From contig NC_043000.1 in assembly GCF_006345805.1 (NCBI RefSeq), positions 73,780,001 to 73,844,000 on the forward strand: DNA of 64,000 nt. The letters run 5' to 3'. A program made the translations under genes and the position numbers. Shown here one piece after another: positions 13,392 through 42,405 of this stretch. Each line of letters opens with the position of its first letter. Position 1 is the first letter of the stretch. Source of the DNA: Octopus sinensis. Its lineage: Eukaryota. The notes beneath the pieces were generated by a model. The model was not told the DNA's origin, searched no databases, and was given only the letters and a program-made list of their open reading frames with translations.

Positions 13392-13445
<54 letters not shown>

Positions 13446-13537
13446 ATAAAACGGTAAGATAACAAAAGAAAGAGACCTCAATATTATGTAAATAGAGGAA
13501 ATTTATCTATACAATATGTTACATTACTCGGTAGTCA

Positions 13538-13599
13538 AGATAAAACTCTGAGTTTCAGATGCCGAAGTGGAATCCACAACACCATCTCTTCGGTTATCT
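13538..13599 (-). ncRNA. Hammerhead-like ribozyme (variant core), left arm copy
   Basis: Reverse complement of 13612-13674. Confidence 0.5.
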
Positions 13600-13611
13600 G
13601 GCTAAATAGCC

Positions 13612-13674
13612 AGATAACCGAAGAGATGGTGTTGTGGATTTCCACTTCGGCATCTGAAACTCAGAGTTTTATCT
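13612..13674 (+). ncRNA. Hammerhead-like ribozyme (variant core CCGAAGA)
   Basis: AGATAA-CCGAAGA-GATG...CATC-T-GAAA-CTCAGAG-TT-TTATCT: 6 bp stem I, stem II, minimal stem III; U4C change and one extra base. Confidence 0.5.
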
Positions 13675-13696
13675 TGACTACCGATTAATGTAACAT

Positions 13697-13759
<63 letters not shown>

Positions 13760-13852
13760 ATATGTATGTATGTATGTATGTGCAGATTTTTATGTTTTAT
13801 GTATGTATACTCGTGCATATAGTTGCATATCTAGACATACTCATATATATTT

Positions 13853-14590
13853 AAATGATAAACTTCTGGAATGTTTTACAAATTTTTACAGTTCCAGTGA
13901 TGGATTGGATCTGTAGTCTTCGAATTAGCCTTCTCCTTTCTGGTTTTTAGAAGGCTAATTTCTCACGATTGGTATCTAGGCAGTGTGTTACATATCCCCG
14001 GGCCCCAATAATAACAGATAAAAACCTGAACTTGTAATCTGGATAGAGTAACTGCAGATTTCTCAGTAGTTCAGCATAGATGTTCTCTTTTTCACTAATC
14101 TTCTGCTTTATGTTAACATCCGCTGGGCAGCTAATTTCTACGACTACGCACAGTTTCTTTTCTCTATCCCAAATCATTATATCAGATCTATTGTGCTTAC
14201 ATTTTATTGAGGTCTTCACTGGTACATTCCACCAGTATTCCTTTTTGATAGCAAGTGGCTATGGTTTCTACCATATTTTGGGTTCTTTGTCCTTGGGATT
14301 ATCCTTCCAACAGATTTCATTATAGAGTGTCCTAGCTACAACAATATATCTCATCGGTAGATAATACCATGATGACATTTTCGAACAACTGCTTATGATG
14401 TGCGTGATATCTTCAGTGTGAACTCCACAAAGTCTGCATCAGTTGTCACATTTTACGGCTTTTCCTGCATCTCTATCCCTTTTGTGCATCAGGTACTTGG
14501 TTGGTATTTCTTGTTCCTGGATAGCAAACGCATACCCTTCAAATTGGGAGGTATTAATCCAGCTATTTTAGTCCATGATATACTGCTTTG
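13853..14590 (-). mobile_element. 3' fragment of an R4/NeSL-type non-LTR element (CCHC finger plus restriction-like endonuclease)
   Basis: Minus-strand CRLC...HIISSC motif, then WWNVPV..HNRSDIMIWD..VVEISCP..K..Y..L; followed by a (CATA)n/(TA)n tail. Confidence 0.8.
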
Positions 14591-14653
14591 ATGATCGATG
14601 TTACTATAATCACTGAAATTTCTACTGATATACCCATGCGTACATACACACGT

Positions 14654-15240
14654 ATGGATGGATGGATGGATGGATGGATGGATGGATGGATGGATGGATG
14701 GATGGATGGATGGATGGATGGATGGATGGATGGATGGATGGATGGATGGATGGATGGATGGATGGATGGATGCATCTATTAAAGAAATTTTTTTAAATGA
14801 TAAAAGCAAAAGGCTAAATGGATGTGTATGTGTAAAAGAATTCAGAACTGAGTATTTTCGCTATAATAGTTAAAGGTTAAAAGTTCAATTATTTTTGATG
14901 GTGGTTTGGTTGAAGTCTTTGTATTTATGTGTATGATTGTATGTATATGTATTTTTATTATGGGAAATTGTATACATACACACACACACGTGTGCACGTA
15001 TGTGTGTGTGATAGTGGGAGAGAGAATGATGGAAGAAGGAAATAAAATTTCTTGTTGCTTGTTCAAAAAAAAATATCTTTGCAATGGCACCCATTTTAAA
15101 AAATTTCTTTAATAAATGCATCCATCCATCCATCCATACATACATACATACATCCATCCATCCATCCATCCACCATCCATCCACACATACATACATACAT
15201 ACATACATACATACATACATACATACATACATACATACGT
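14654..15240. repeat. (GGAT)n and inverted (ATCC)n/(ATAC)n microsatellites with about 30 bp of inverted unique flank
   Basis: GATGCATCTATTAAAGAAATTTTT at about 14770 versus AAAAATTTCTTTAATAAATGCATC at about 15098. Confidence 0.75.
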
Positions 15241-16095
15241 ACGTACGTACGTACGTACGCATTCAGGTTTTGGACAAGCACAAACACATAGCCACACACA
15301 CACACACGGAGACATTTGGAGTCACACAGTGGTGCTAAATCCAGAAACATATAGCTAAGGAACAAAGTTCCTACCACACAGACAGGTCTGTGTCTTACAA
15401 CAGAGCTTATAGATAAAAAAAAATTATAAGTATATAACCAGCTTCCAAAAAATTCTAATTAATAATTATTATTAATTTGCATTTTGTGTATATCTCTTTT
15501 AGTGTAACAAAATGCAACAAAGTTGCATTTCTTTGGGACCTTGTTAAATTTCTTTCTGAGTTTTGCCAGAATATTTTTAAAAGGCATAGTTTAGATGAAG
15601 TTTGAATTTATAGTTTAACAACACCCAAGTTGATTTCGGTGAGAAATAATGTTTTCCCTTGTTTTTCTTTTTTCTTTTGCTATCAACTAATCTCATCAAA
15701 TATACTACAAAGACCTTTTCCCACTGAAATCGGAGTGGGGTGGGCCCTCAGAATCCTCCTCTCACCTCAGAGTTATATATTTCTGTGGGATGACGTCAGC
15801 AGCTGGGTGCACTGACCGGAGGTTGGGGCAACCAGAAGGGGCAGCCGTGAGGCGCGCGTAGGGAGCGGCGATTTCGGCCTTTTCGAACCAGGGTCATCGA
15901 CGTGTCGAGACGGGGGAAGACGTTGCTAAGGTTGGGTGAAGCAGCTGCTATCTTTAGCACTCGGGTCGGAGCTGTGTCGAAGGATCCGTTACCACTGAAG
16001 GGCTCCCTCGGAGCGAAGAGAAGGTAGGTGCCTTTATATTCGAATCGCGCACACACTACAAGCTATTTCGGCGCTCCACATAAGTCGTCACCACG

Positions 16096-16842
16096 ATGTC
16101 TGCGAAAATCAGGATCGCCAGCGACATCATCAGACCCTTCAATGGTGAAGGCGATGTAGTGGCCTGGATTCGTAAAATCAGGCTGGTGGCAAGACTGCAA
16201 GGTATAAGCGATGTGGCAAGTCTTATGTCGCTGTATTTAGAAGGGAGCGCGTTAACGCTATACCTTGAGATAGAGGATGAGGAACGCCTGAGCGAGGAAA
16301 AAATAGAGCAACGATTGCGGGATGCCTACACAGAATGTGAATACACAGCTTTTGCTAAGCTGGGTACGATTCGGTGGACAGGATGACAAGTGGACGAGTA
16401 CGCGGCAGAAGTTAGAAGGTTAGCGACGCTGGCTGGGTTTACGGGAGAAGGGCTGGAGAGAGCGGCGCGACTGGCCTTTGTAAATGGGTTCCCCGACGAT
16501 GTAGGGATTCACCTACAACGATTGCCCGGGATTAAAAAGATGGCGCTGAGCGAACTGGTGACTCAAGACCGCGTGTTGACGCGACACTCTGGGCGGAAGG
16601 CGATTGCGATGGCGGTGACGGAGGTGCTTAAAGACGGACGACGACCGGAGAAAGACGTACAGAAGCGGCCGTTCACAGGTCGGTGCTTTAGATGCCAGGG
16701 GTCGCACATGGCGCGGGACTGTACGCAACCGGGGCCCGTTTGCTATCGATGCAGGCAGACAGGGCACATCGCCCGTGATTGCGACCAGGGAAACGACCGC
16801 GAAGAAGTTGCTGCTTCTCGAACTTTCCCCGCAAACGAGTAG
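16096..16842 (+). pseudogene. Gypsy gag with premature stop
   Basis: CFRCQGSHMARDC and CYRCRQTGHIARDC. Confidence 0.85.
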
Positions 16843-19286
16843 AGGCGCTATTGGAGACGCTGCCATTAATTGACGTGGAGGCTTACACCATCGAGGACAA
16901 AGATTTTCAGGCGGCGTTCGGTGGTCAGTGGTGGACGATAGAGTGGCGATGGAAGGACGAGCCCGCGACGCTGGAAAACAGGGTGAGCTGTTACCAGCAT
17001 ACCCTGAAAGGCCACGCCAGGGTTGAGTTTGAAGACGAGGTGGAGAGGTGGATCGAGGAAGGGGTCCTTGTCCCTTGGGAGGAGGAGGTAGTGGATGGAG
17101 TGCTACCCCTGATGGCGGTGGTGCAGCCTACGATGGGAAAAGTCAGACCAGTATTGGACTTCAGGGAGCTAAAACAGCATATATCGTGTCTCACGGGAGG
17201 TGAGGCGACAGACATTTGTGGCGAGAGTTACGTGCGTGGAGACAGTCGACCGAGGCAGCGACGATTGTCGACTTGAAATCGGCATGCTTGCAGCTCCAAG
17301 TGAGCGACAAACTGTGGCGATATCAGCTGGTGCGGTACAAAGGCCGGACGTACTGTTTAACCAGGCTAGTTTTCGGGCTGAATTCCGCACCGAAGATCAT
17401 GGCGGCAGTCCGTCCTAGGGAAAGACGACAAGATTAGAAAGGCCACCAGCTCCTACATTGACGACATTTTGGTCGACGAAACTGTAGTGCCAGCCAACGA
17501 GGTAGTTAGACATCTGGAGAAGTTCGGACTGATTGCGAAGCCACCGGAGTCGATGGAAGGGGGAGCCGCGCTGGGGCTGAAGCTGCGAAGAGATAGATCA
17601 GGTGAATTGGTGTTCCGGAGAGGGAATGAAATCCCAGAGCTGAGTTCCAGTGTCAGCAGGAGAGAACTGTTCTCGGTGTGTGGGAAGTTGGTCGGTCACT
17701 ACCCGATCGCTGGATGGCTGCGTACGGCGTGTAATTACACCAAGAGATGAGCAGAGGGAGAGAGTTGGGGCGACAAGCTGGGAGAAGGGACGGTGGCGAT
17801 GATGCAGAAAATCCTAGAGAGGACGAGAGCGGAAGACCTGGTCAGGGGGAACTGGTACGTGCCCAAAACAGAATGCGGGACCGTCTGGTGTGATGCTAGC
17901 AGTATAGCGATAGGGGTTGTGTTGGCAATCGAAGGAGCTGCGGTGGAGGACGCGGTCTGGCTTCGGGAAGCAGATGATTTCAACCACATCAATGTCGCCG
18001 AATTAGACGCGGTGTTGAAAGGGGTGAACTTGGCCCTGAAATGGGGATGCGCACAATTGAAATCCGGACGGATTCGGCCACTGTGCTTGGCTGGGTAGGA
18101 TCAGTGATCACCGGTGAAAGGAGAGTGCAGACGAAAGGTGCCGCTGAGATGTTAGTGAAGCGCCGTCTAGGAGTTCTAGGTGAATTAATCGCCGAGTTCG
18201 GACTGAAGCTGAATGTGGTTTTCGTGCCTTCGGAGAAAAACAGGGCGGACGCACTGACCAGGGTGAAAAGAGCGTGGTTGAAAGAACCGGAGGAGGCCCG
18301 GAAAGGGATAGCTGCGGCGTGTCGGTTGGATGACTCCGAACTGAAGAGACTGCATGCTATGCATCACCTGGGTGTGGACAGGACCCTGTATCTGGCGAAG
18401 AAAATTGATGCTGACGTCATTAGGAGAAGCATCCGAAAGGTGGTCCGCAGCTGCGACAGGTGTCAGTCCATCGACCCTGCTCCGTGTGGGCATGAGCAGG
18501 GAAGCCTTTCGGTGGAGCAGAACTGGAAAAGGCTAGCTGTGGATGTGACACACTACCGTCAGGGAATGTACCTCTCCATGGTCGACTGCGGGCCAGGCCG
18601 GCTGGCCATTTGGAGGGAGTTGAGAACGGCATTGCTGACGAGATCGCGCAGATCCTGAACGGGATATTTTTAGAGAGAGGTCCCGTGGAAGAACTACTGA
18701 TGGACAAGGGGGCGGAGTTTCGTTCGAAAGCATTGAGGGTTATGCTTGATCGGTGGAATGTGCGTCGCTTGTTCAGAGCAGCGTATAGGCCAAGCGGTAA
18801 CGGGATCGTGGAGAGGCACCATTGGACAGTCAAGGCCATAGCGGAAAGAGGGCACATTTTGCCGCTGGAAGCAGTTTTTTGGTACAACTTGTCTCCCCGA
18901 TCCGGACAAGCTGAGGAATCTGTGCCGCAGAGAGCTGTATTCAAATATGAATGGAGGTACCCGAGCAAAGCGCCAGAGGGTCACGAGGAAAAGAAGGGAC
19001 CCGTTTGCGTGAAAATAGGGGAGGAAGTCTGGGTTAAGCCACCAAAGGCGAGCTGTACGTCTAATGGAGCAGAGGAACGGTGACGGCGGTCAATTCCAGA
19101 AACAACGTCTCCGTGGATGGAATGCCGCGACACGTCTTGGACCTTCGCAGGATTGTCGCTTCGACGGACGACGATTCTGGAGAGGGGGAGAACGAGGTGC
19201 CCAGCTTGAGAAGATCTCGACGCGCAAGACGCCCTCCCGGTTGGATGGTGGACTACGACATGGAGCGGAGAGATTGTGATCTTTAA
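16843..19286 (+). pseudogene. Gypsy pol (RT-RH-INT), frameshifted, no protease motif seen
   Basis: KVRPVLDFRELK, FGLNSAP, WCDAS, HHLG..CDRC, VDVTH, GNGIVER. Confidence 0.85.
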
Positions 19287-19576
19287 GATCAGGGTGGCGT
19301 GTGGGATGACGTCAGCAGCTGGGTGCGCTGACCGGAAGTAAGGGTAACCAGAAGGGGCAGCCGTGAGACGCGCGTAGGGAGCGGCGATTTCGGCCTTTTC
19401 GAACCGGGGTCGTCGACGTGTCGAGACGGGGGAAGACGTTGCTAAGGTTGGGTGAAGCAGCTGCTATTTTTAGCGTTCGGGTCGGGGCTGTGTCGAAGGA
19501 TCCGTTACCACTGAAGGGCTCCCTCGGAGCGAAGAGAAGGTAGGTGCCTTTATATTCGAATCGCGCACACACTACA

Positions 19577-19765
19577 GTTTCTTCGTTTTCTTTTTCGCGT
19601 ACTATCAACTAATTTCAGCTCCTAGTATATTGCAAAGGACTTTTTCCCCCTTTGCGGTGTATTAGGAGGTCAGAATAGTGGCTGTTTTTTATTCCTAATA
19701 ACTGCTGTTTTTAGTATACTAAACAACCACGTTAAGGACCGGCCACCTTTGAGTTTATTTGTTGT
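19577..19765. repeat. Dispersed repeat also present at 15650-15725 and 23761-25345
   Basis: Shared CTATCAACTAAT...CCTTTGCGG...ATAACTGCT..TAGTATACTAAAC...CACGTTAAGGAC. Confidence 0.75.
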
Positions 19766-19876
19766 TTTACACAGCAAATTCCGATATAATCGTAATCTAC
19801 ACCATCTGAGACGTACATGTAGAAAATTTTATTAACAAATTATCCATGTTTCAGAAAGTTACCACACACACACATG

Positions 19877-19943
<67 letters not shown>

Positions 19944-19949
<6 letters not shown>

Positions 19950-20195
19950 GTTTTTGTGGCTGGACGCCCCTCCTAACGCCACCACTTTACAGAGTGGACG
20001 GAGTGTTTTTAAGTGGCATTGTACGGGAGCATGGTTCTAATGGCTGAATAACCTTCCTAACACCATCACTTCACGGCGTCGATTGAGTGCTTTTACGTGG
20101 AACCACACAGAAGCATTGTTTCAACGGCTGGATACCCTTCCTAATACCACCACTTTACAGTATGGACAGGATGCTTTTACGTGACACCAACACAG
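19944..20195. repeat. About 3 tandem ~80 bp units related to the RTE 3' UTR
   Basis: Repeated GGCTGGA..CCCTTCCTAA..CCACCACTTTACAG..GGAC..GTGCTTTTACGTG; similar to 32055-32100. Confidence 0.65.
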
Positions 20196-20271
20196 TGCCA
20201 TATATATATATATATATATAATTTTTATTTTATTTTATCTAGTTTCAGCTTACGAGCTGTGGCATGCTGGG

Positions 20272-20315
<44 letters not shown>

Positions 20316-20326
20316 ACACACACACG

Positions 20327-20361
<35 letters not shown>

Positions 20362-22148
20362 TGTTATGTGTAGTTTCGTTCTAATGGGATAGACAACTCA
20401 AATGAAAGCCATTGTTATTGTTTTACGTGTTTATTTACTTTTCATGTTACACGAACAGTCAACATTCGGCATTTATACTTTAGACACAGTTCGTACTGTT
20501 CTAACAAAATAGTGCCAAAAGTGGGGATGTATTCTACATACGTATACCTGCGTATACACATAGATATAACTGTGTAACATCCCTTCTTCTTGAAAAGAAA
20601 TAAAGGGGTCTTTTGGCAGTGAAGACAAACACAAGTAGTCTCCCTTACTCTAATGGATTGTCACCGCGAGGTGGCAATCCTGCAGCAGTTTCGTGAGATT
20701 ATTCTGCCTCTGCTTTGTAATCTAACTGAATTAGTTACTTATCTTTTCATTTTCTTTTTTTTTTTTCTTTAACAGTATCGAACCGGTGGCAGAATGTTCT
20801 TTCTCCATCTGGTGGATCTTGTGCTTCGCACCGGTGTCTGGGGTGTGTTGTTGGGCTGCTGATGGGTGGTTGGTGCCCGTTGGGGTGATGATTCTGTGGG
20901 TGTTGTCACTGATGCAGCAGGTGTTGTACACGTTGTCCTCGACAGCTTTGGTGTTGGACGGATGTGGGCCCTGTTGCGTCTCAGCTGCCTACCAGATTCC
21001 GTTTCTATTATATACGATCTTGGAGTTTCAGCTCTACTGTCAACCTGTGCTGGAATCCATGTTTTAGTTATGGGATCTTGAGTATGTACATGTTGTCCTC
21101 CAAGTATCTCAGGTATTGTGCATGTTTGTTGTAATGTTTCTGTGATTGTTCTTGAGTGGCTGCTAGCTTTGCCCTTGTCTCTTCCTGGTCAATAGGAGGT
21201 TGGATCTTAGTTGGCAGGCTAGTTTTGTACTGTGCCTAGATACAATATATACACTGCTGCCTAGTGAGCTTGTTTGTAAGGTAAGTGAGGCCATTTGTTT
21301 GGTAGTGGCTTCGAATGTTCTTGCATTGTTACCTATGGGGGATTTCTGAACTTCTTTATGAGCACACCTCCATATTAATTGATCAACAATTCTTTCGTCC
21401 TTATCTTTGAATTTGCATTTTTCGGCAACATTCTTTAGTCTGGACAGGAAATTGTCAATCGTTTCTTGTGGGTCTTGTTTCAGGCCCTGGAATTCGTATC
21501 TGTGAATTCTATGGTTCGATCTGGGCTCTAGGTGCCTTTCAAATTTCTCTGAAAGTGTGTCTGGGTTATTGCAATCTGATTCCGACATGTCCCAGCTATT
21601 GAATAGGTCTAGACCCTTCTCGCCCGTCCATAAAAGGATATAGCTTACCTTTTCATCTTCAGTTGTGCCTTTCAGGAAACTTTTGAAAGCTAGTTGAGTT
21701 TTCTGTTTGAATTTCTTGAACGCTTCTACGATATCACCGGAGTCCCAGTTCATGATCGGATGTAGATTCATCTGTACGGCGACGGGGGTCGCCATTTTGG
21801 ATTCTCGTGTATGTGTGTCCGAAGACGAAGCGATGTTTTGTTTGTTAAATTTCTGGTTCGTTGCGTTTCTGTTTTGTTGTAAAGGCACAGTTTCCGATTA
21901 ATTATTTACCGCTGCCACCATGTTATGTGTAGTTTCGTTCTAATGGGATAGACAACTCAAATGAAAGCCATTGTTATTGTTTTACGTGTTTATTTACTTT
22001 TCATGTTACACGAACTGTCGACATTCGGCGTAGTGATACATTTATACTTTAGACACAGTTCGTACTGTTCTAACAAAATAGTGCCAAAAGTGGGGATGTA
22101 TTCTACATACGTATACCTGCGTATACACATAGATATAAATGTGTAACA
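20362..22148 (-). mobile_element. Small non-autonomous LTR element carrying only gag
   Basis: LTRs 20362-20579 and 21921-22148 (TG...CA); PBS TGGTGGCAGCGGT at 21908-21920 (tRNA-Leu type); PPT AAGAAGAAGGGA at 20580-20591; inserted in a (TA)n tract. Confidence 0.88.
21163..21888 (-). CDS. Gypsy-type gag (capsid) ORF, likely truncated
   Basis: FKKFKQK..LLWTGEKGLDLF..FERHLEP..RYEF..QDPQETIDNFLSRLK..AEKCKF..IVDQLI. Confidence 0.75.
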   Translation of the reverse strand: MPLQQNRNATNQKFNKQNIASSSDTHTRESKMATPVAVQMNLHPIMNWDSGDIVEAFKKFKQKTQLAFKSFLKGTTEDEKVSYILLWTGEKGLDLFNSWDMSESDCNNPDTLSEKFERHLEPRSNHRIHRYEFQGLKQDPQETIDNFLSRLKNVAEKCKFKDKDERIVDQLIWRCAHKEVQKSPIGNNARTFEATTKQMASLTLQTSSLGSSVYIVSRHSTKLACQLRSNLLLTRKRQGQS

Positions 22149-23760
22149 TATATATATACGTATATATATACATATATATGTATTATATATATACACACAC
22201 ATACACATACATACACACATATACATCATATACATACATATACATATACGAGCAAAACGCCCTCCGTCCAATGGATGGTGCTGAGTTGTCAAACATTTAA
22301 ACCAAATTTTCTCAAAACAACTTGTCCGACCGTCCCATAAGCCTCCCCTTTGAGAAACACTGATTTAACCTAAATTTGAGACACCAGCAAAAGAAGAAAT
22401 AAAGATAGACTTTTTTCTATTCCAAAGAAAAATGATTTTATTCACACAAATATACAACCGAAGAGTTTAAAGTACCAGCAATGATAAGGCTGTTGATTGG
22501 GAGAACACAAATATGGTTTAAACAGTAAGCTTGGCAGGAAAGAAACGTGCCTTTAAGCAGTACAAAAACAACAAAAAATGGAAGGTGCAGTTATATACAG
22601 GTTGACGGAAGAAAAGCAGGACAAAAACGATGCATGCGAATGGGTTAGCTGGCGGTAAATTTATATGGAAAAGCATGATGAATTTATGACAATAATGGGA
22701 CAATAATGAGTTTAGTGCATTTTTCTCGCGTACGTGTAGTATCGATCGCAACAGCTGATGTACTTGCGCGTACAAATGCAAGTTCCCACGGCTTTATCGA
22801 TCGCATTCTCACCTGGAATCGATTTTTGTAATTTTTTCAAGACTTATACACGCCCTGATACCGTCGGTATCTACATATCAAATTTGAGCGCAATCTAATG
22901 GAGGATGCCCGAGATCCTTGAAGACACACACGCAGCCAGACAGAATGGATTTTATGTAAAAGATATACATATGTAGTGGATCTTGCATGCATGAAGTGGA
23001 TTCGATCCACCATAGCCAAATTTAAATTAACGCTGGGACAGAACTGTTCCCATGGTGAAACAATGGTTTTTCTCTGATAGCAATCGTACATCTTTCAGAC
23101 GCCTTTAGCTAGGCCGAAATAATGTCTTCACCACTTGACCCTTTCTAACCCCTTCTACTTCACCAAAAGCGAGAATAGAGATAACAAGACCACCAACTAA
23201 ATCTATTGTTTTCAATGGTATGTCTATCCTTCTGGATAGTTATATAAGCCAGCACTTCCCAAGCAAAAATCAGTTCGTCACAGTCGTGACGACTCGACGG
23301 AGTTAGTCACAGTCAGTGACGACTCAATGAGGTCTGGCTGACCAACTTTGGTCAGAGGGAGAAAGCAACTGCGAGACAAGACCCTACAATTCTCTCTAGC
23401 TCTAATTCTGTTCTCTTACAACATCATTCTATGTCTCCGCAATTACTACTAAACAATGAAGAGGACACAAACACAAACTTTACTTCGCATGCTTTTGGAT
23501 TTATCATAACCTGTCCGTCGAGGCAAGGTATTGTAGCGTAACGGTAAATAAATATTTTCTTAAAACATCATGCATTGTTCATCTTTCCCATCATACAACT
23601 TGTTATAAGAATAACTTTTTATCGTTGCATTTGCTGACCACAACATTTCATAATATTGTGTACCAAATCAATTAATGCCGTTACACATACATACGTACAC
23701 ACACACACACACACATATTATATATACACACATTATATACAGACATATGTACACACACAC

Positions 23761-25176: not shown

Positions 25177-25210
<34 letters not shown>

Positions 25211-25342: not shown

Positions 25343-25383
25343 AAAACAGAGTATAATATGTGTGCGTGCGTGTGTGTGTGTGT

Positions 25384-26166: not shown

Positions 26167-26384
26167 TAATAATAAATATTAGGGAATAAATCCAAACTTA
26201 CAGGGAAAAATCAGATTTAGGATTGAATCCAATTTTATAGTAAAATATTATATTATATTAAATTAGAGACAAAACCACTATTAGGCAAATCATACAATGA
26301 AAAACTTAAGCCAATACATAAGATTATTTAATTTATATTATTTAAATATATAACAAAATTATTAAAAAAATATAATTAATATAT

Positions 26385-26448
26385 CACTACGATCGTTTCA
26401 TGGCTGTTAATTTCTTTAAATTTTCAAGTCACAGTCATTCATCAGGTG
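26385..26448 (-). ncRNA. Hammerhead ribozyme (type I, minimal palindromic stem III)
   Basis: CAC-CTGATGA-ATGACTGT...ACAGCCAT-GAAA-CGATCG-TA-GTG. Confidence 0.75.
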
Positions 26449-27123
26449 GTTTAAATATCAGACTCAATATTCAATAAACCATTAAATATTTATTATTTAG
26501 TAATAAAATATTTAGTAATAAAATGAACAACCATCTATAATCTAACTATAATTAAAAACAAAACCTAACTAACTAAAATAATCTATTATAATAAGTACTA
26601 CAAATCACCTGGTATATTTATAATACTATTACATAAAACAACAAATAGGGAGCTAATTAAGGCTAAGAAATAATCATTATTTATCAAGAAATTTATTATA
26701 TAAGTAAAGTAACTTGTGTCTGCATTTTATTTTGCGCTCATCACAGGTATTCAGTAAATTATCATGCTTATAAAATAAAATTTCCTTAAACTCATTAGAG
26801 CATAAATAACAAAAATTCGCTCCTATAGTATATGATTTAGTTTTACTAATTATTTCCCAAGATAAATTATAATTAATAAATTTCTTGATAAATAATGATT
26901 ATTTCTTAGCCTTAATTAGCTCCCTATTTGTTGTTTTATGTAATAGTATTATAAATATACCAGGTGATTTGTAGTACTTATTATAATAGATTATTTTAGT
27001 TAGTTAGGTTTTGTTTTTAATTATAGTTAGATTATAGATGGTTGTTCATTTTATTACTAAATATTTTATTACTAAATAATAAATATTTAATGGTTTATTG
27101 AATATTGAGTCTGATATTTAAAC

Positions 27124-27187
27124 CACCTGATGAATGACTGTGACTTGAAAATTTAAAGAAATTAACAGCCATGAAACGATAGTAGTG
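27124..27187 (+). ncRNA. Hammerhead ribozyme, right-arm copy (stem III CGATAG, one substitution)
   Basis: CAC-CTGATGA-ATGACTGT...ACAGCCAT-GAAA-CGATAG-TA-GTG. Confidence 0.7.
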
Positions 27188-27348
27188 ATATATTAATTAT
27201 ATTTTTTTAATAATTTTGTTATATATTTAAATAATATAAATTAAATAATCTTATGTATTGGCTTAAGTTTTTCATTGTATGATTTGCCTATTAGTGGTTT
27301 TGTCTCTAATTTAATATATATACATATATATATATATATGTGTGTGTG

Positions 27349-31758: not shown

Positions 31759-31785
31759 AAACCAAGGAAAGGAATTCCTTCAAAG

Positions 31786-31847
<62 letters not shown>

Positions 31848-31849
31848 AG

Positions 31850-31899
<50 letters not shown>

Positions 31900-31926
31900 C
31901 TTTGAAGGAATTCCTTTCCTTAGTTT
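31759..31926. repeat. About 30 bp inverted repeat enclosing a (TA)n tract
   Basis: AAGGAAAGGAATTCCTTCAAAGGAATA...TATTCCTTTGAAGGAATTCCTTTCCTT. Confidence 0.85.
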
Positions 31927-31975
31927 GTTACATTAATGTGTGCGTGTGTGTCTGTGTGTCTGTGTGTGTGTGTGC

Positions 31976-34900
31976 TAGTATGGATTGGACGATTTGACTG
32001 AGGTCTCGCAGATGGCTGCACCATGCTCCAATCTGATCTGGCAGAGTTTCTAAGCTGGATGCCCTTCCTAATGCCAACCACTCCGAGAGTGTAGTGGGTG
32101 CCTTGCTGTGCCACCGGCACGGGGGCCAGTCAGGCGGTAATGCCAATGGCCACGCTCCAATGGTGCTTTTTATGCGCCACCTGAACAGGAGCCAGGCCAG
32201 CGGCACTGGCAACGACCTCGCTCGACTGTTTTTTCACGGGCCACCAGCACAAGTGCCAGTAAGGCGACGCAGGTAACGATCACACTCGAATGGTGCTTTT
32301 TACGTGCCACCGGCACGGAAGTCAGCTTGTTGCACTGACAACGATCACGCAGGGAGCACCAGCTCTTAGTGCTTCCACTAGCACGGATGCCAGTCATCGA
32401 ATTTGATTTCGATTTCAATTTCACTTGCCTCACCATGTCTTCGCGAGCAGAGTTTAATGTCCAATGAAATAATGGTACGCATAAGTGGGCTGGTTACACA
32501 GTTACACCCCTGGCATAGGCCACGTAGTTATGGCCTTTCTTGGCTTGCCGAGTCTTCTCAAGCACAGTATATTTCCAAAGGTCCGGTCACTAGTCATTGC
32601 CTCGGTGAGGCCCAGTGTTCGAAGGTCATGCTTAACCAACTCATCCCAGGTCTTCCTGGGTCTGCCTCTTCCACAAGTTCCCTCAACCACTAGGGTGTGG
32701 AACTTTTTCACACAGCTATCCACATCCATTCTCACCACATGACCATACCAGCGTAGTCATCTCTCTTGCACACCACATCTTCTTAGGTCCAACTTTTCTC
32801 TCAAGGTACTTACACTGACATTACACATCCATCGGATCATACTGGCTTCATTCCTTGCGAGCTTACGCATGTCCTCGGCAGTCAAGCATGGCTGTTCGTA
32901 CACATGCGTTATACTGTCTACCTTTTACTCTGAGCGAGAGGCCCTTTGTCACCAGCAAGATAAGAGCTCTCTGAACTTTGCCCAAGCTATTCTAGCAGCT
33001 ACACTTTCAGTGCAACCTCACCCGTTACTAACTTGGTCACCTAGGTAACGGACGCTATCAACTACTTCTAGTTTATCTCCCGTGAATGTGGCAGTTGTTC
33101 TCTGCACGTTTTCAGTGTTTATTGCTCCTGAGCATCTGCCACATACAAAAACGATCTTCCCAGTTAGCCTTCCTTTGATATTGTTGCACCCCTTATGTGT
33201 CCATAGCTTACACTAGGTACATCTTATAGAGTTTCTACCTACGCCTTTTCTACAGATCGAGCAGGGCCAGCTACCTGAAGGGATTTGTGGTTTGCCTGCC
33301 TTCCTACTTATTAGGACTTTGGTTTTAGCTAGGTTGGCTCTAAAGCACTTTGATTCTAATCCTTGTTTCTACACTTGAAACTTCTCCTCTGGTTCTGATA
33401 GTGACTCAGCAATTAGAGCAAGGTTGTCAGCATAGAGAAGTTCCCAGGGGCATCCTGAGGAGGCTGAAGACTGAACCTTGGTGGACCCTAACCCTAACCC
33501 TACCTCTACGCTGAATTCTTCCGTGTACTTGTTGCCAACCCTCACCTTACTGACAGCGTCCCTGTACATGGCTTGCACAGCTCCCACTAACCATTCTTCT
33601 ATCCCTAGTTTCCTCATTGACCACGAACCCAAACTGCATCTCATCTAAACTGACTCTCTCCCTAATTAGTTGGGCTATTACCCTCTCTGTGATCTTCATT
33701 ACCTGATCCAACAGCTTGATACCTCTGTAATTATTTGTATCTACCTTTATAGCAGTTGACTATTATGCTGCTACACCAGTCATTGGGTATGACTCCTTCG
33801 TGTATCACCTGGTTAACTATACGGATGACTAGGCTATAGCCGACACTGCCATATATTTTGAGCATCTCTGTAGTAATTCCTGATGGGCCGGGGGCTTTCC
33901 CTGTCTTCATATTCTTAATTGCTTTATCTAACAAGGTACTGTCAACTCGGATAGCTGGTCCCTCTGTTGGGTCAACATTCGGCAGACTCTCTTTCTCCCA
34001 TTCATTTTCTTTATTCAGCAACCTTTCATAGCCTCGTTTAGTGTAAGAGAACCATCATCCATGCGGACACATTTCTCTCCTACAACATCGCGATTCTCTC
34101 TCACACACTATCTTGCAACACGAAATACCTCAAGTCTTTAGTCCTCAGGGCGCAGAACAATGGAAAATTTTTTCTTATCTGCTTCCCCTCTGGCTATTAC
34201 CCTGTCTCCAAGCTTCCTTTCTGGCAGTCTGATACAATTTTCTGCTACCATCGTTCTTCCAGTCCTTCCAAGCCTGTTTCTTTTCTCTAATAGCCCTGTC
34301 AACAACATTGTTCCATCACCACGTGATTTTGGGTCGAGAGTGGACTTTGCACCATCCACGGATCTTGTCAGTGGCCCTCAGCAGGATGTCCCGTAGACAC
34401 CTCCAGTTGTCTTTTACATCGTGTGAAGATATATCCCCCTTCTATTTCGTCAAAGGCTTCGAGTAATATGTCTCTAAATCTCTGTCCATTCGCAGGATCT
34501 TTAAGCTTCCAGACCCTTCTCCTCCATGCTGATCGTCTTCTGGGCATCCATTTAGCCCTGATCCTGAAGTCACTAACTACCAGTCTATGTTGTGGAGTAC
34601 ATTCTTCGCCTGGGAAGGTTTTGGCATTTATAAGCAGCCATCTTGCCCTTTTTCTGGTGAGGATATAGTCAATTTGGCTAGTATGTCTGCCAGAACGATA
34701 GGTAACTAGGTGACTGGCAGGTTTCCTGAAGTTAGTATTGCAAACCATAAGATCATTTGCATCGCAGAACTCCAGCAGCTTGGTTCCCTCCAAATTGCGG
34801 GAACCAAAACCGTAGCCTCCATGTACGCCATGGAAGCCATATGTATGTTTCCAACATGTCCATTGAAGTCACCATCCACAAAGAGAAGTTCCCTGTCATT

Positions 34901-35000
34901 CATCAACAAGGTAGTCTGCAAGAGAGTGTCATAGAATCGGTCTTTCTGTCCATCGGGTTGCCCCGGCTGAGGGGCATAGGCCGAGATAATGGTTGCTAAA
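31976..35000 (-). mobile_element. Degenerate RTE-clade LINE with tandem subrepeats in the 3' UTR
   Basis: GDFNGHVG, SQIDYIL, QHRLVV, GKAPGPSGI, WELLYAD, GRGRPRKTW. Confidence 0.88.
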
Positions 35001-35027
35001 TATATATGAGCAGGCTCGAATCAGGTC

Positions 35028-36985
35028 TGGCAAAGTTTCTACAGCTGAATGTCCTTCCTAACGCCAACCACCCCGAGAGTGTAGTGGGTGCTTTTATGTT
35101 TCACTGGCATGAGGGCCAGTCAGGTGGTACTGGCACGACCATGCTCATATGGTGCTTTTTACGTGCCACCTGCACAGGAGTCAGTCCGGTGGAACTGGCA
35201 GCGACCACGCTCGAATGGTACTTTTTACGTGCTACCGGCACAGGAGCCAGTTAGGCAATGCTGGTTACAATCACGCTCAAATGGTGATTTTTACGTGCCA
35301 CAGGCATGGGAGCCAGTCAGCGGCCCTGGCAACAATCACACTCAAATGATGCTTTTAACATTCTACTGGCACAGGTGCCAATCAGGTGGTGCTGTCATCG
35401 GCCACAACAATGATTTCACTTGCCTCAACAAGTCTTTGCAAGCGTAGTTTATTGTTAAGGGTAACCTTAAATGGGCTGGTTATACAGCACTGGCATAAGA
35501 CACAGTTATGGTCTCATTTGGCTTGCCAGGTCTTCTCAAGCACAGGTTGAGCTCATCTCCGAAGGTCTCGGTCATTTGTCATTGCCTTGGTGAGGCCCAG
35601 TTTTCCTCAACTGCTAGGGTGCGACGCTTCTTCACACAACTATCCTTATCCATTCGCAACACATGACCATACCAGCAGTCATCTCTCTTGCACACCACAT
35701 CTCATGCTTCTTAAGTACAAATTTTCTTTCAGGGCGCTTACACTCTTTTGTGTATGCACACTGATATTACACATCCAGCGGATCATACTGGCTTCATTCC
35801 TTGCAACCTTCACGTGTCCTCAGCAGTCACAGCCCATGTTTCACTGCCATGTAGCATGTCTGTTTGCACACATGCTTCATACAGTCCACCAGCAGGTGTA
35901 TGAGCTCTCTGAATTTGCCCGGGCTATTCTTATTCTAGCAGCTACACTTTCAGAGCATCCACTCCAGCTACTGACTTGGTCACCTAGGTAATGGAAGCTA
36001 TCAACCACTTGTAGTTTTTCCCCCTGGAATGTGATGGAAGCTGTTCTCAGCACGTTTTCAGTGTTTATTGCTCCTGAGCATTTACCACATACAAAAACTA
36101 TCTTCCCAGTTAGCTTTCCTTTGATATTGCTGCACCTCTTATGTGTCCATAGGTTAAACAGGGTACATCTTATGGAATTTCTACCTACGCCTTTTCTACA
36201 GATTGAGCAGAGCCGTCTACCTGAAAGGATTTGTAGATGTCTGACTTCCTACTAATTAAAATTTTCGCTTTTGCTAGATTGACTCTAAGACCCTTTTATT
36301 CTAGACCTTGCTTCCATACCTGAAATTTCTCCTCTAGTTCTGATAGTGACTCAGCAATTAGAGCAAGGTCATCAGCATAGAGGAGCTCCCAGGGGCATCC
36401 TGTCTTGAATTCCTCTGTTATTGCCTGGAGGACTATGACGAATAAGAGAGGGCTGAGGGCTGATACTTGGTGGACCCTACCCCTACTCAGAATTCTTCCC
36501 TGTACTTGTTGCCAACTCTCACCTTACTGACAGCACCCCTGTACATGGCTTGTACAACTCTCACTAACCATTCATCTATTCCTAGTTTCCTCATTGATCA
36601 CCAGATAAGGGATTGGCGGACCCTACCAAAGTATTTCTCCATGTCAACGAAAGCCAGGTACAGAGGTTATTCTTTGGCTAGGTATTTCTCTTGCAGCTGT
36701 CTTACCAGAAATATAGCATCAGTGGTGCTTTTTCCTGGCACAGACCCAAACTACATCTCATCTAGACAGACTCTCTCCCTAATTAGTTGGGCTATAACCC
36801 TCTCCGTGACTTTCATTACCTGATCCACCAACTTGATACCTATGTAATTATTTGCATCTAATAGGTCACCTTTACCTTTGTAGCAGTTGACTATTATGCT
36901 GCTACACCAGTCATTGGGTATGACTCCTTCGTGTATCACCTGGTTGACTATAAGCCTAACTAGACTATGGCCGACACTACCATAC
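35028..36985 (-). mobile_element. 5'-truncated RTE-clade LINE
   Basis: IPNDWCSSIIVNCYKGKGD, LLYADDL region; same 3' UTR subrepeats as the 31976-35000 copy. Confidence 0.85.
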
Positions 36986-37061
36986 ATACATATATATATA
37001 TATATACAATATATATATTATATATTATTATATATATACATATATATATAATATAATATAT

Positions 37062-37094
<33 letters not shown>

Positions 37095-37143
37095 TACCTA
37101 TATATATATATATATCTACATAATATATATATATATTATATAC

Positions 37144-37185
<42 letters not shown>

Positions 37186-37187
37186 TA

Positions 37188-37219
<32 letters not shown>

Positions 37220-37266
37220 TATATATATATTACATATTATATACATATATATATATATATCATATA

Positions 37267-37306
<40 letters not shown>

Positions 37307-37433
37307 CATGATATTATATTATATATACATATATATTATATATATACATATATATATATATATTATACATATATATATATATATATACATCTATATATAT
37401 ATCTATATATATATAATACACATATATATATAT

Positions 37434-37483
<50 letters not shown>

Positions 37484-37496
37484 TTATATATATATA

Positions 37497-37571
<75 letters not shown>

Positions 37572-37704
37572 TATATATCTTATATATATATACATATATA
37601 TATATATATAATAATTATACATATATATATCTATATATATATCTTACATATATATTATATATAATCTATTATATATCTATATATATCTATATATATATAT
37701 ATAC

Positions 37705-37755
<51 letters not shown>

Positions 37756-37838
37756 AGACATATATATAATATATATTATATACATATATATATACATATA
37801 ATATACATATATATATACATATATATAATATATATATA

Positions 37839-37882
<44 letters not shown>

Positions 37883-38091
37883 ATATATATATATAATATA
37901 TACATATATATATAATATATATATATATACATAGATATCTTATATATAATATATATATCTATATATATATATATATCTATCATATAAGATATATATATAC
38001 ATATATCTATAATATATATACAATATTATAATATATATATATATACATATATATATATCTACATATATATATATATATATCTAATATACTC

Positions 38092-38125
<34 letters not shown>

Positions 38126-38441
38126 CATATATAATATATATACATATATACATACTATATATATACATATACTATAATATATATATATACATATATATAT
38201 ATATAATATATATATACATATATATATATACATATATATATATATTCATATATATTATATATCCATATCTATATATATATATATATATATACATATATAC
38301 TATATATTATATATATACATATATATATATATATCTATAATATATATATATATATATATATCTATATATCTATACATTATATTATATATATAATATAATA
38401 TATATATATACACTAATATATATATATATCTATAGACTATA

Positions 38442-38491
<50 letters not shown>

Positions 38492-38871
38492 ATATATCTA
38501 TATATATATATATATACTTCATATATATACTTATATATATATATATATACAATATATATATATATAATATATATATCATATATATATATCTAATATATAT
38601 ATAACATATATATATATATATATATATAATATATATTATAGATATATAATATATCTATTATATAGTATATATATATATTATACATATATATATATATATA
38701 TACATATATATATAATATACTATACAATTATATATATTATATATATATACATATATCTATATATAATATATATATATATATTATATATATATCTATATAT
38801 ACATATATATATATCATATCTATACATATATATTCTATATACATATATATATATATATATATTATATATAC

Positions 38872-38907
<36 letters not shown>

Positions 38908-38981
38908 TATATATACATACATAGCATATATCTATATCTATATATACTATATATATCTATATATACATATATTCTATATCC

Positions 38982-39035
<54 letters not shown>
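36986..39035. repeat. About 2 kb imperfect (TA)n tract
   Basis: Direct inspection. Confidence 0.95.
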
Positions 39036-39036
<1 letters not shown>

Positions 39037-39208
39037 TGAGTGTATTTTTGCCTTGTTAACAATTAACACGAAAAAAAATAGTTACCACAGGGTAGCAAAA
39101 ATCACACAAGTAAAGAGGTTGTAACGCCTTGTTCATAAAGGTAGAAACTTCGTGTTTACGTGGAATGTTTTGTATAATATATAAATCAGGTATAAATCAA
39201 ATACTTTT

Positions 39209-39295
39209 ACTTTCGACACATGTTTCGAAAATTCCACTGATATTATTCAAAAGAATAAATGGTATAAAACAATGCAATCTTCTCTTCAGGAAAGT
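39209..39295 (-). ncRNA. Hammerhead ribozyme (canonical core, GUC site)
   Basis: ACTTTC-CTGAAGA-GAAGATT...AATTTTC-GAAA-CATGTG-TC-GAAAGT. Confidence 0.8.
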
Positions 39296-39343
39296 GAAAA
39301 AACTAAACTCGTCAATAAGATATTTTAGCATATATATATATAT

Positions 39344-39382
<39 letters not shown>

Positions 39383-39408
39383 TATATGTATATATATGTA
39401 TATATATG

Positions 39409-39459
<51 letters not shown>

Positions 39460-39642
39460 AGTGATAGTCTATTCTATTCTATTATTCTATTTATTCTTTT
39501 ATCTACTTTATCACTGATTCTTTTGACCACTCCCCTAAGAAAGACAGTTTGCGCCATGCCTACCCCAAAAAGTCCCCCACCACCACCACCACCACTTTAA
39601 ATCTGCCTAAATGTATAAATGCCAAAACTATTCTTGTCACCA

Positions 39643-39693
39643 AGCTTCCTGATGATTTCTTTTGAATGAAACAGTTCTAGTCCTGTAGAAGCT
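39643..39693 (+). ncRNA. Hammerhead ribozyme (compact, GUA site)
   Basis: AGCTTC-CTGATGA-TTTC TTTT GAAT-GAAA-CAG TTCTAGTC CTG-TA-GAAGCT. Confidence 0.85.
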
Positions 39694-39906
39694 CCTTCTA
39701 TAAAATAAATTAATTTACTCTGCTATGTATTGAGTACTTTATTTACTGTGGTTAACCCCGACTCAACCCGGGACCTACATATATATATATATATATATAG
39801 AAATTCAGGGTGAGCACTTGATAATTGTAAGCACCTGTATATACCGTTTGGTGGTGTAGGTGGTGGAGTAAATTAATCAAAATAAAAACATGATGCCAAG
39901 GATTCA

Positions 39907-39984
39907 GCGGTACATATGTTTCGGGCCTTTATTAGAAGGATTTATAACAATGCATAATGTGTGTCTATGGCCTTCTTCAGCCGC
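39907..39984 (-). ncRNA. Hammerhead ribozyme (palindromic minimal stem III)
   Basis: GCGG-CTGAAGA-AGGCC...GGCCC-GAAA-CATATG-TA-CCGC. Confidence 0.78.
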
Positions 39985-40243
39985 GCACAATTACTACCTC
40001 AAGGACATGTATTACATCAAAATTTCTACGTTGGGGATGCAAATCCTCTCATTCGCGTACGACATAATGCGGCAACAGCACAAAAATGAAGCGTCCATCT
40101 CGTCCTTCTCTACATTGAGAGAAGGACGAGATGGACGCTTCATTTTTGTGCTGTTGCCGCATTATGTCGTACGCGAATAAGAGGATTTGCATCCCTAACG
40201 TAGAATTTTGATGTAATACATGTCCTTGAGGTAGTAATTGTGC

Positions 40244-40321
40244 GCGGCTGAAGAAGGCCATAGACACACATTATGCATTGTTATAAATCCGTCTAATAAA
40301 GGCCCGAAATATATGTACCGC
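40244..40321 (+). ncRNA. Hammerhead ribozyme, right-arm copy
   Basis: GCGG-CTGAAGA-AGGCC...GGCCC-GAAA-TATATG-TA-CCGC. Confidence 0.75.
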
Positions 40322-40354
40322 TGAATCCTTGGCATCATGTTTTTATTTTGATTA

Positions 40355-40394
<40 letters not shown>

Positions 40395-40409
40395 TTATTA
40401 TATAGAAGG

Positions 40410-40460
40410 AGCTTCTACAGGACTAGAACTGTTTCATTCAAGAGAAATCTTCAGGAAGCT
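40410..40460 (-). ncRNA. Hammerhead ribozyme
   Basis: AGCTTC-CTGAAGA-TTTC TCTT GAAT-GAAA-CAG TTCTAGTC CTG-TA-GAAGCT. Confidence 0.85.
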
Positions 40461-41679
40461 AGTTGACAAGAATTGTATTGGCATTTATACATTTAGGCAG
40501 GTTTAACGGGGTGTTGGTGGGGGACTTTTTTGGGGGTAGGCATAGCACAAAATATCATACTTGGGGGAGTGGTCAAGGAGTCAGTGTTAAATTAGATAGA
40601 AGAATAAATAAAAATAAAAATAAAAAAATAAAAAAATAAAAAATAAAAAAATAAAATAAAAAAACCTATATATAAAAAAAGGGGGGATAGAGTTTTAGGT
40701 AAATAAGGAGATTCTCACTTATACCTATGCACACATGTATACATACATACACACACATACAAACACATATACATATACATACACACACATATATATACAT
40801 ATATATACACTTACACATACACATGCATATACATATCTACACATACACATATAGACAGATAAATGGACTGGCTGTCATAGCCAAGATGTTTGTGACCAAG
40901 CGGCCAAAGATAACAAAAGTAATAAACAGAAGATAATAAAATTAAAATTAGGGAATGGGCCTGTATTAGTATGTGTATATATATGTGTGTATGTGTAGGT
41001 TTGCATAGGTACACATATGTATATGTATACATGTATGTATATGTATGTATGTGTGTGTATATGTGTGTGTATGTGTATATATGTGTATATAGGGACTAGT
41101 GCGCTGTGTGTGCATGTGTGTGTGTGGATATGTGTGTGTATGCGTGTATGTGAGTATGTGTGTGTATGTGTATATATATTTTTCTGTGCGTATATGTATG
41201 TGAGGTTGTGTGTGTATATATACATGTGTGTATACGTGTATGCATGTGAGTGTGTGTGTGTATACATATATGTGTATGTGTAGATATGTATATGCATGTG
41301 TATGTGTAAGTGTATATATATGTATATATATGTGTGTGTATGTGTGTATGTATATGTATATGTGTTTGTATGTGTGTGTATGTATGTATACATGTGTGCA
41401 TAGGTATAAGTGAGAATCTCCTTATTTACCTAAAACTCTATCCCCCCTTTTTTTATATATAGGTTTTTTTGTTTTTTTTATATATAGGTTTTTTTATTTT
41501 ATTTTTTTATTTTTTTATTTTTTTATTTTTATTTATTCTTCTATCTAATTTAACACTGACTCCTTGACCACTCCCCCAAGTATGATATTTTGTGCTATGC
41601 CTACCCCCAAAAAAGTCCCCCACCAACACCCCGTTAAACTTGCCTAAATGTATAAATGCCAATACAATTCTTGTCAACT

Positions 41680-41730
41680 AGCTTCCTGAAGATTTCTCTT
41701 GAATGAAACAGTTCTAGTCCTGTAGAAGCT
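41680..41730 (+). ncRNA. Hammerhead ribozyme
   Basis: Identical to 40410-40460 on the opposite strand. Confidence 0.85.
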
Positions 41731-41818
41731 CCTTCTATATAATAAATTAATTTTACTCTGCTATGTATTGAGTACCTTATTTACTGTGGTTAACCCCGAA
41801 TCAACCCGGGACCTACAT

Positions 41819-41854
<36 letters not shown>

Positions 41855-42102
41855 AATGGTTGTTGCCACCTCAACGTGGTTGTTCTGTACAAAAATCTCC
41901 CATCCAGAGGTGACAAGTGTCCAGTACTGAGGTAGGGTAAGACCCTGAAACCAGTTCTGATCTACTAGTCCTGTTGTCGATGGCAATATAATGGACACAG
42001 ATATTGTGTTCTTAACCAGCTGGAGAAGGCGTCCTCCTGGGTTAAAAAGAATAGTAACATTGTTCTGTAAGGAACAACTACGCTGAGGTGGGAACAACCA
42101 TT
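41855..42102. mobile_element. 248 bp element with ~35 bp inverted termini inside (TA)n
   Basis: AATGGTTGTTGCCACCTCAACGTGGTTGTTC versus GAACAACTACGCTGAGGTGGGAACAACCATT. Confidence 0.7.
41923..41966 (+). ncRNA. Hammerhead-like motif (A9U variant)
   Basis: AGTA-CTGAGGT-AGGGT AAG ACCCT-GAAA-CCAGTTCTGA-TC-TACT. Confidence 0.55.
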
Positions 42103-42140
<38 letters not shown>

Positions 42141-42237
42141 TAACAATAAAGGGTGAAATTAATTAATTTGGAATAATTATTAATTACACCAAGTAGATTT
42201 CGGCATGTAAAAGCCTCATTCGAGGAAAATTTAAGTA

Positions 42238-42405
42238 ATACTAAGCAATTAAGGGTTTAGCAACGAATTGCCTCACCACACACCGAATTTAGAAATAGCA
42301 GTCAAAGAGTTATAGTAGAAAGAATAGCTATAACTCTTTGACTGCTATTTCTAAATTCGGTGTGTGGTGAGGCAATTCGTTGCTAAACCCTTAATTGCTT
42401 AGTAT
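42238..42405. repeat. Perfect palindrome (78 bp arms, 12 nt loop) between (TA)n tracts
   Basis: 42238-42315 is the reverse complement of 42328-42405. Confidence 0.95.

Follow-up and report, generated by a model that had tools for sequence, protein, structure and literature searches.

Five head-to-head palindromes of Octopus sinensis as Penelope-like element insertions whose one-sided tails suggest two primings

The DNA analysed in this work is a stretch of 64,000 nucleotides (nt) from Octopus sinensis (assembly GCF_006345805.1, contig NC_043000.1, positions 73,780,001 to 73,844,000 of the forward strand), and the whole of this stretch is called the window. Five palindromes in the window, named P1 (13508-13704), P2 (26254-27318), P3 (39869-40359), P4 (40393-41747), and P5 (42238-42405), are almost certainly insertions of Penelope-like elements (PLEs). 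Their architecture is the known PLE insertion signature, which has been published and is not new. The findings added in this work are that the one-sided tails of Hydra-type elements measure about 65-100 nt, not 30-40 nt, and that the tail lies on the 5'-longer arm in some cases and on the 5'-shorter arm in others, a distribution that plain snap-back cannot give. The tail is thus independent of the spacer between the arms, and the mechanism favoured here, with moderate confidence, is that two primings generate the palindrome.

All five inverted repeats were recovered by self-comparison of the window, and a comparable inverted repeat was found in 0/10 block-shuffled windows. The final bases shared by the arms are identical to those given by an earlier sequence-only reading of this DNA in 5/5 cases (13508/13704, 26254/27318, 39869/40359, 40393/41747, and 42238/42405). 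The palindromes, with their tails included, are as follows.

13444..13704: P1 head-to-head palindrome; arms 13508-13604 and 13607-13704, spacer (centre loop) of 2 nt; (TA)n on either side
26176..27318: P2 palindrome; arms 26254-26703 and ~26870-27318; spacer of ~160 nt native to the left, tailed arm
39800..40359: P3 palindrome; arms 39869-40111 and 40118-40359; loop of 6 nt (40112-40117) that belongs natively to the right arm, which has no tail; overlap of 3 nt (40109-40111)
40393..41816: P4 palindrome; arms 40393-40853 and 41267-41747, duplicated low-complexity DNA included; spacer of 413 nt
42138..42405: P5 palindrome; identical 78-nt arms 42238-42315 and 42328-42405; loop of 12 nt; without hammerhead

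The arms of P1 differ at 2 positions in 97, those of P2 by 2 substitutions in ~450, those of P3 at 5 positions in 243, and those of P4 by slippage indels. The palindromes had been regarded as unrelated, and the P1-P5 families are indeed mutually unrelated; the sole kinship is that of P4 with a solo copy at 39.5 kb. The PLE-type insertions sit in (TA)n, and target-site duplications are obscured as both flanks are microsatellite. In both P4 arms (40393-41747), poly-T and TATG-rich DNA extends past the part that the solo copy shares; this DNA may be donor flank that was captured and copied into the two arms.

The evidence for PLE origin is direct for P2, where an endonuclease remnant survives, and is given by geometry for the other palindromes; on these grounds the PLE origin proposed earlier is upheld. 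An open stretch of 63 residues runs on the minus strand across the P2 spacer and left arm. The coding remnant is listed below.

26680..26877, minus strand: Hydra-type PLE GIY-YIG endonuclease C-terminus (CxxC..E..N..CxH), cut at the inversion junction, with an overlap of ~4 nt with the inverted arm (26874-26877) as judged from frame continuity

The P2 spacer peptide (P0001) has 39 protein matches at E<=1e-3, and 8/39 were retrieved. One match, P0020, is a protein of 696 residues with reverse transcriptase (RT) and GIY-YIG domains that carries DKT, RWQ, a CxCX6C linker, and CxxC..E..N..CxH. The last pattern is invariant across a 15-row alignment that includes the P2 peptide. The Hydra clade has been described with DKT, RWK, a CxCX5C linker, no CCHH, CxxC and CxH around the endonuclease E and N, canonical hammerheads, and (TA)n targeting (PMC8557442, in its section 11). 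P2 shares with this clade the CxxC and CxH around E and N, its relatives have DKT, RW, and a CxC..C linker, and the canonical hammerhead and (TA)n are shared as well. The DKT/RW/linker region falls outside the surviving part of P2 and is seen in the relative P0020 only. Pfam gave no match for the P2 peptide and no RT match for P0020, and its GIY-YIG model scored above the cut-off in 1/11 proteins and below it in 3. P2 is assigned to the Hydra clade, and P1, P4, and P5 are probably Hydra-like. No coding remnant was found in P1, P3, P4, and P5 with these references, as expected of stubs, and their PLE assignment is based on hammerhead, tail, and target (tail and target for P5). The restriction of coding evidence to one palindrome of the five counts against the overall interpretation.

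A type I hammerhead descriptor was written for this analysis in a strict and a relaxed version. It identified 10 cores in the window versus 0-1 per shuffle (20 shuffles; one core in 6 of them). Eight of the cores lie in the arms of P1-P4.

13544..13593, minus strand: P1 left hammerhead, variant core C-C-G-A, GUU site
13618..13668, plus strand: P1 right hammerhead, found with the descriptor
26388..26445, minus strand: P2 left hammerhead, 235 nt past the end of the endonuclease frame
27127..27184, plus strand: P2 right hammerhead, stem III altered
39911..39980, minus strand: P3 left hammerhead, found with the descriptor
40248..40317, plus strand: P3 right hammerhead, found with the descriptor
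40416..40454, minus strand: P4 left hammerhead, found with the descriptor
41686..41724, plus strand: P4 right hammerhead, found with the descriptor

All 8/8 arm cores point away from the centre, which agrees with the outward reading claimed for P1-P4; the arms mirror each other, so that these are only 4 independent orientations. The P2 hammerhead lies downstream of the endonuclease frame on the same strand, which means that outward is the sense of the element. The remaining 2 cores belong to solo elements: the core at 39649 (plus strand) is of the P4 family and that at 39289 (minus strand) of an unrelated family. No hammerhead was found in P5 by the strict and relaxed descriptors, and a hammerhead-like half motif in the P5 tail was discounted because the core is missing. 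Rfam returned a hammerhead in 0/90 matches at E<=1 and gave only chance miRNA-like hairpins. The tail-less arms of P2 (27127-27184) and P3 (40248-40317) carry an altered version of the self-complementary stem III, which is intact in the corresponding tailed arms; only these two cases were seen.

One arm of each palindrome runs on past the last shared base as a tail, and the shorter arm enters (TA)n directly. The tails are as follows.

13444..13507, minus strand: P1 tail, 64 nt, CCTC/GAGG stem
26176..26253, minus strand: P2 tail, 78 nt, next to (AAT)n, beyond which lies (TA)n
39800..39868, minus strand: P3 tail, 69 nt, AC-rich start, without CTC/GAG stem
41748..41816, plus strand: P4 tail, 69 nt, ACTC/GAGT stem
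42138..42237, minus strand: P5 tail, 100 nt, CCTC/GAGG stem

The extension of 60-80 bp on one arm that had been claimed fits P1-P4 (64-78 nt) but not P5; the asymmetry claimed for P5 is nevertheless real, its tail being on one arm only. The tail had also been said to end at the flanking microsatellite, which is generally (TA)n but in P2 begins with the (AAT)n given above. No intact open reading frame (ORF) start was found in these tails. The outer, distal end is common to the P4 long arm and the P4-family solo copy. Contigs of four public runs from four studies were aligned to 39480-40175 only, which is the region of P3 and of the P4-family solo copy. Among them, 14 P4-family contigs of run X5 enter (TA)n at 39710, which corresponds to the base of the P4 short-arm end (proximal end), and 3 more enter at 39707. 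Two family-wide ends that bound the tail are observed for the P4 family, and the signal for P3 is weak (5 contigs in one run).

A stem of the form N-CTC...GAG-N', which was spotted by eye and is therefore post hoc, is located just past the proximal end in 3/5 window tails (P1, P4, and P5) and in the P4-family solo copy. Its outer pair varies (G-C, A-U, and C-G), and its per-sequence shuffle frequency is 0.01-0.10. No such stem was found in the tails of P3 and of P2, the palindrome with the Hydra-type endonuclease. The stem may be an RNA signal that positions the enzyme.

Relatives were retrieved as 68 loci (L numbers) from metagenome contigs with an alignment of 6 P2-peptide matches. No convincing DNA similarity was found between the window elements and the 68 loci. 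A sense-strand descriptor hammerhead follows the endonuclease in 28/68 loci. Families A and B comprise 24 copies, or ~19 distinct ones once duplicates (L022, L031, L068, the tandem copy in L039, and L030/L032) are removed, with some doubt left by the microsatellite flanks. The ~19 distinct copies end at the proximal end in 11 cases and at the distal end in 8 (two of the 8 are the references), and the two sites of family A are 66 nt apart. The CTC/GAG stem is present in 7/8 distal-ended versus 0/11 proximal-ended copies. It also occurs in L002, L004, and L009, with an overall count of 11/28 scanned loci, one of which, L060, has its stem far off and probably by chance.

Inverted copies compared with the family-A reference (23 loci) lie upstream in 7 events (L013, L020, L021, L024, L028, L030/L032, and L059) and downstream in 0. 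The loci with an ORF on both strands, identified at the protein level, have the inverted piece upstream and head-to-head in 5/6 cases. Family-A events with both ends visible consist of one proximal and one distal arm in 3/3 cases. L030 and L032 were rejected as two events since their common flanks indicate one insertion. The minus-strand hammerheads in L062-L064 were dropped for want of a matching inverted arm, and the inverted repeats of L030, L031, L054, and L066 were discounted because they are located away from the element. Two further arrangements were observed: in L028 (890-1490), the tail-stem region of an inverted family-A arm holds an inserted element that belongs to another hammerhead family, and two family-A hammerhead units lie head-to-tail, 100 nt apart, in L039 (391-564), which is retrozyme-like.

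The relation between the owner of the spacer and the tail was compared in five informative events. The spacer lies on the tailed, 5'-longer arm in P2 and L021. P3 has a concordant loose end at 40109 in 4/4 runs (8, 9, 6, and 5 contigs), which means that the native sequence of the tail-less arm carries on into the 6-nt loop, the overlap being 3 nt. The spacer of L030/L032, ~460 nt long and endonuclease-bearing, is likewise part of the tail-less arm, and the 28-37 nt that its two arms have in common are too few for easy later flipping. L028 has the tail on the 5'-shorter arm as in L030/L032, but is interrupted. The tail is found on the 5'-shorter arm in P3 and in 2/3 two-ended events of other organisms. 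A complementary DNA (cDNA) that started at the proximal site and folded back cannot yield a tail that it never contained, so that the tail requires another priming event, at the distal site and from the other target strand. The sequence-only reading had proposed a common mechanism by snap-back or second priming; the second priming is needed in P3 and in these 2/3 relatives, while snap-back alone fails and may still shape the centre.

According to the proposed mechanism, several PLE families would insert independently into (TA)n in a heavily 5'-truncated form. The element endonuclease would nick both target strands, a step that, like the two start sites, is borrowed from published in vitro work on another clade. 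Each 3'-OH would prime reverse transcription on element RNA, one at the distal start and one at the proximal site 65-100 nt upstream. Both cDNAs would head for the element 5' end, stop early, be joined at the centre with an overlap of 0-4 nt, and then be filled in. One cDNA would often fold back first and the second cDNA would pair with the folded-back strand, as suggested by the very short loops and by the low-complexity DNA common to the P4 arms. The product would be head-to-head, so that any hammerhead would read outward and the tail would be present only on the distally primed arm, and the palindrome would be a by-product of insertion. The geometry, the P2 protein identity, the two family ends, and the independence of tail and spacer are observations; the order of the events and the fold-back are what we infer. 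The fuller version, which is two-sided target-primed reverse transcription with the strands primed at different RNA start sites plus the Hydra-clade CTC/GAG stem past the proximal site as the enzyme-positioning RNA signal, is put forward tentatively.

Several observations weigh against two primings, and they bear on a one-priming account in which a fold-back lets the first cDNA, or an antisense template, serve for copying itself, and a one-sided tail is left once the intermediate has been cut by the endonuclease at the proximal site. The self-priming and endonuclease-resolution ideas behind this account are those of Arkhipova 2013 (PMC3846280) and Craig 2021 (PMC8557442). The loops of P1, P3, and P5 (2, 6, and 12 nt) and of L026 (2 nt) fall short of what two independent stops would tend to give, and the P4 arms share low-complexity 5' DNA; both favour fold-back. 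The junction overlaps are ~4 nt for P2 (from the frame), 3 nt for P3, ~1 nt for L030, and 0 nt for L021, so that the L021 junction has none. The 6-nt loop of P3 could flip later by arm-to-arm recombination, which makes P3 alone weak. The inverted ORF piece of L014 lies downstream (the remaining 1/6). The family C palindrome of L026 (7055-7244) has outward hammerheads, but its two arms terminate at one and the same base and no tail is evident, which means that tail asymmetry is usual and not universal. The in vitro data on two start sites come from a Poseidon element and not from Hydra. One priming also agrees with the near-identity of the arms, with P2 and L021, where the tailed arm owns the spacer, and with the location of the P3 junction within a native imperfect hairpin. 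However, it offers no source for the tail when the spacer-owning arm has none (P3, L030/L032, and L028), and proximal-ended copies without an inverted copy in the contig are common (L016, L023, L026, L034, L039, and L056), though some contigs are short. One priming is considered rather unlikely on this balance.

The other explanations have lower probabilities. An artefact origin of the palindromes is unlikely, and fold-back chimeric reads from assembly or library preparation are the least probable source of all. The P5 arms are identical, and the P3 centre is unbridged in independent contigs among the 32 pieces listed of 7188, which also counts against our interpretation. However, the arms of P1-P4 differ, the family allele at position 39937 is that of the P3 right arm and the left arm has a private change, the short-arm ends coincide with the family-wide end, and the same architecture is present in unrelated assemblies. 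It is very improbable that the palindromes are themselves mobile non-autonomous foldback units, similar to MITEs (miniature transposable elements with inverted repeats) or retrozymes, that are copied whole. The P3 and P4 families are both multi-copy (870-3045 contigs per run on the aligned region), and non-autonomous PLE derivatives are described in the literature. However, 4 of the 6 joints listed belong to the P3 family and are antisense-then-sense junctions at other centres, each from a single contig with sides of 21-46 nt that are potentially unreliable at that length; the remaining 2 joints are P4-family deletions. In addition, a non-inverted P4-family copy lies 0.6 kb from P4, the sole shared junction (L030/L032) has common flanks and is one insertion, and no head-to-tail tandem array as in retrozymes was found.

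Selective retention of the palindromes as sources of double-stranded RNA (dsRNA) for ADAR or small RNA, or as ribozyme-off switches, is likewise highly unlikely. Nearly every hammerhead base pairs with the mirror arm in the folded read-through transcript, with a stem I probability of 0 in 6/6 folds, whereas stem I is predicted to form with p>=0.6 in 3/6 cases when the hammerhead is folded alone. The self-masking of the ribozyme that had been claimed is thus reproduced in RNA folding only, and it follows trivially from the geometry. Small interfering RNAs match inverted Penelope regions in flies (PMC3681739), and in lizard and frog Penelope ranks among the repeats with the most editing (PMC5625713 and PMC10636886). 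However, the 30 ORFs scanned gave transposon domains only and no recognised host gene, the arms are eroding through ordinary substitutions, without an excess of A-to-G changes, and an older look-alike shows 13 differences over 132 positions. A dsRNA or editing use is plausible and would not be new in kind. No paper on octopus ADAR together with Penelope inverted repeats was found in the literature searched. If such stubs are common in the introns of a heavily A-to-I editing animal, they could be a source of edited dsRNA.

Inverted pseudo-long terminal repeats (pLTRs) placed head-to-head have been reported with palindromic junctions and a tail on one side, together with a model of self-priming (PMC3846280), and an inverted 5'-truncated copy with a one-sided tail of 30-40 bp has been described as typical, with the origin of the inverted pLTRs and one-sided tails stated as open (PMC8557442). 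The earlier statement that PLE insertions can carry an inverted partial pLTR is therefore in print. The window copies resemble these endonuclease-containing PLEs in the inverted 5'-truncated copy placed head-to-head, the palindromic junction, the tail at one end, the pLTR hammerhead, and the (TA)n bias. They differ in being nearly pLTR stubs only and in having tails of 64-100 nt, compared with 30-40 nt in print. The tail length, the two-ended geometry, and the CTC/GAG stem are not described in the Hydra section of PMC8557442.

With the purified protein of PAc (Poseidon, Anolis; Frangieh et al. 2024, PMC11167929), cutting and extension took place on both strands and two RNA start sites that bound the tail were used; the protein is predicted to form a dimer. 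The window elements are similar in the AT-rich target and, on the proposed mechanism, would be similar in the two RT starts that bound the tail and in the cutting and extension of both strands. However, the PAc start sites lie in the ORF start, and inverted insertions are not derived from the two-site result in the part of that paper considered. Minimal PLE hammerheads (Cervera and de la Pena 2014, PMC4209133) share the type I fold, long stem II, palindromic stem III, and opposite-strand pairs, which are 100-700 bp apart in Schistosoma; the orientation of the pairs and a tail are not given in the part considered. Non-LTR retrozymes (bioRxiv 10.64898/2026.07.22.740005) are likewise short non-coding hammerhead units related to pLTRs, but they form head-to-tail tandems, whereas the window palindromes are single head-to-head insertions. 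The symmetric termini and fixed centre of MITEs or foldback DNA transposons are lacking, as the ends are asymmetric and the P3-family centres vary.

A two-sided-priming interpretation of inverted pLTRs, the longer Hydra tail, and the CTC/GAG stem were not found in the literature searched, with supplements, Repbase, and most subscription papers outside its scope. No paper that links inversion and twin priming in a PLE mechanism was found among those judged by title. The stubs provide a countable test of the PLE mechanism, namely whether the tail is coupled to the spacer, and the small sample says that it is not, favouring two primings over self-priming. If the fuller version with the stem signal is correct, it would provide genomic evidence that connects the head-to-head pLTR, so far unexplained, with the two-site, two-strand result obtained in vitro, and it would name a cis signal that can be mutated.

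The window is rich in transposons. Two solo elements that carry hammerheads lie close to P3 and P4.

39035..39329, minus strand: solo element with a hammerhead (39289-39215), from another family and lying between two (TA)n arrays
39460..39778, plus strand: solo non-inverted P4-family copy that ends at the distal site of the P4 long arm; hammerhead 39649-39687

The region 36982-42460 consists of a 2-kb (TA)n array followed by at least 5 PLE-type insertions separated by (TA)n, which is a landing hot spot. An internal RT fragment of a Hydra-type PLE is located at 12822-13210 (plus strand), where (TTA)n and the microsatellite to the left of P1 flank it. The older look-alike is a sixth inverted repeat at 53338-53700 with a spacer of 101 nt and a right arm that ends in (TA)16; no hammerhead was found in it, and no microsatellite was found within 130 nt past its left arm. 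Two tandem non-LTR elements with ~94% identity (APE endonuclease, RT, and zf-RVT) occupy 243-12821, with an internal 740-bp duplication and a (TTA)n end. Direct-repeat pairs surround LTR-retrotransposon domains at 15784-19576 (277 bp, 96%) and 42680-47780 (435 bp, 89%). A tandem duplication of 197 bp with 99% identity at 62546-62996 contains (GATA)n.

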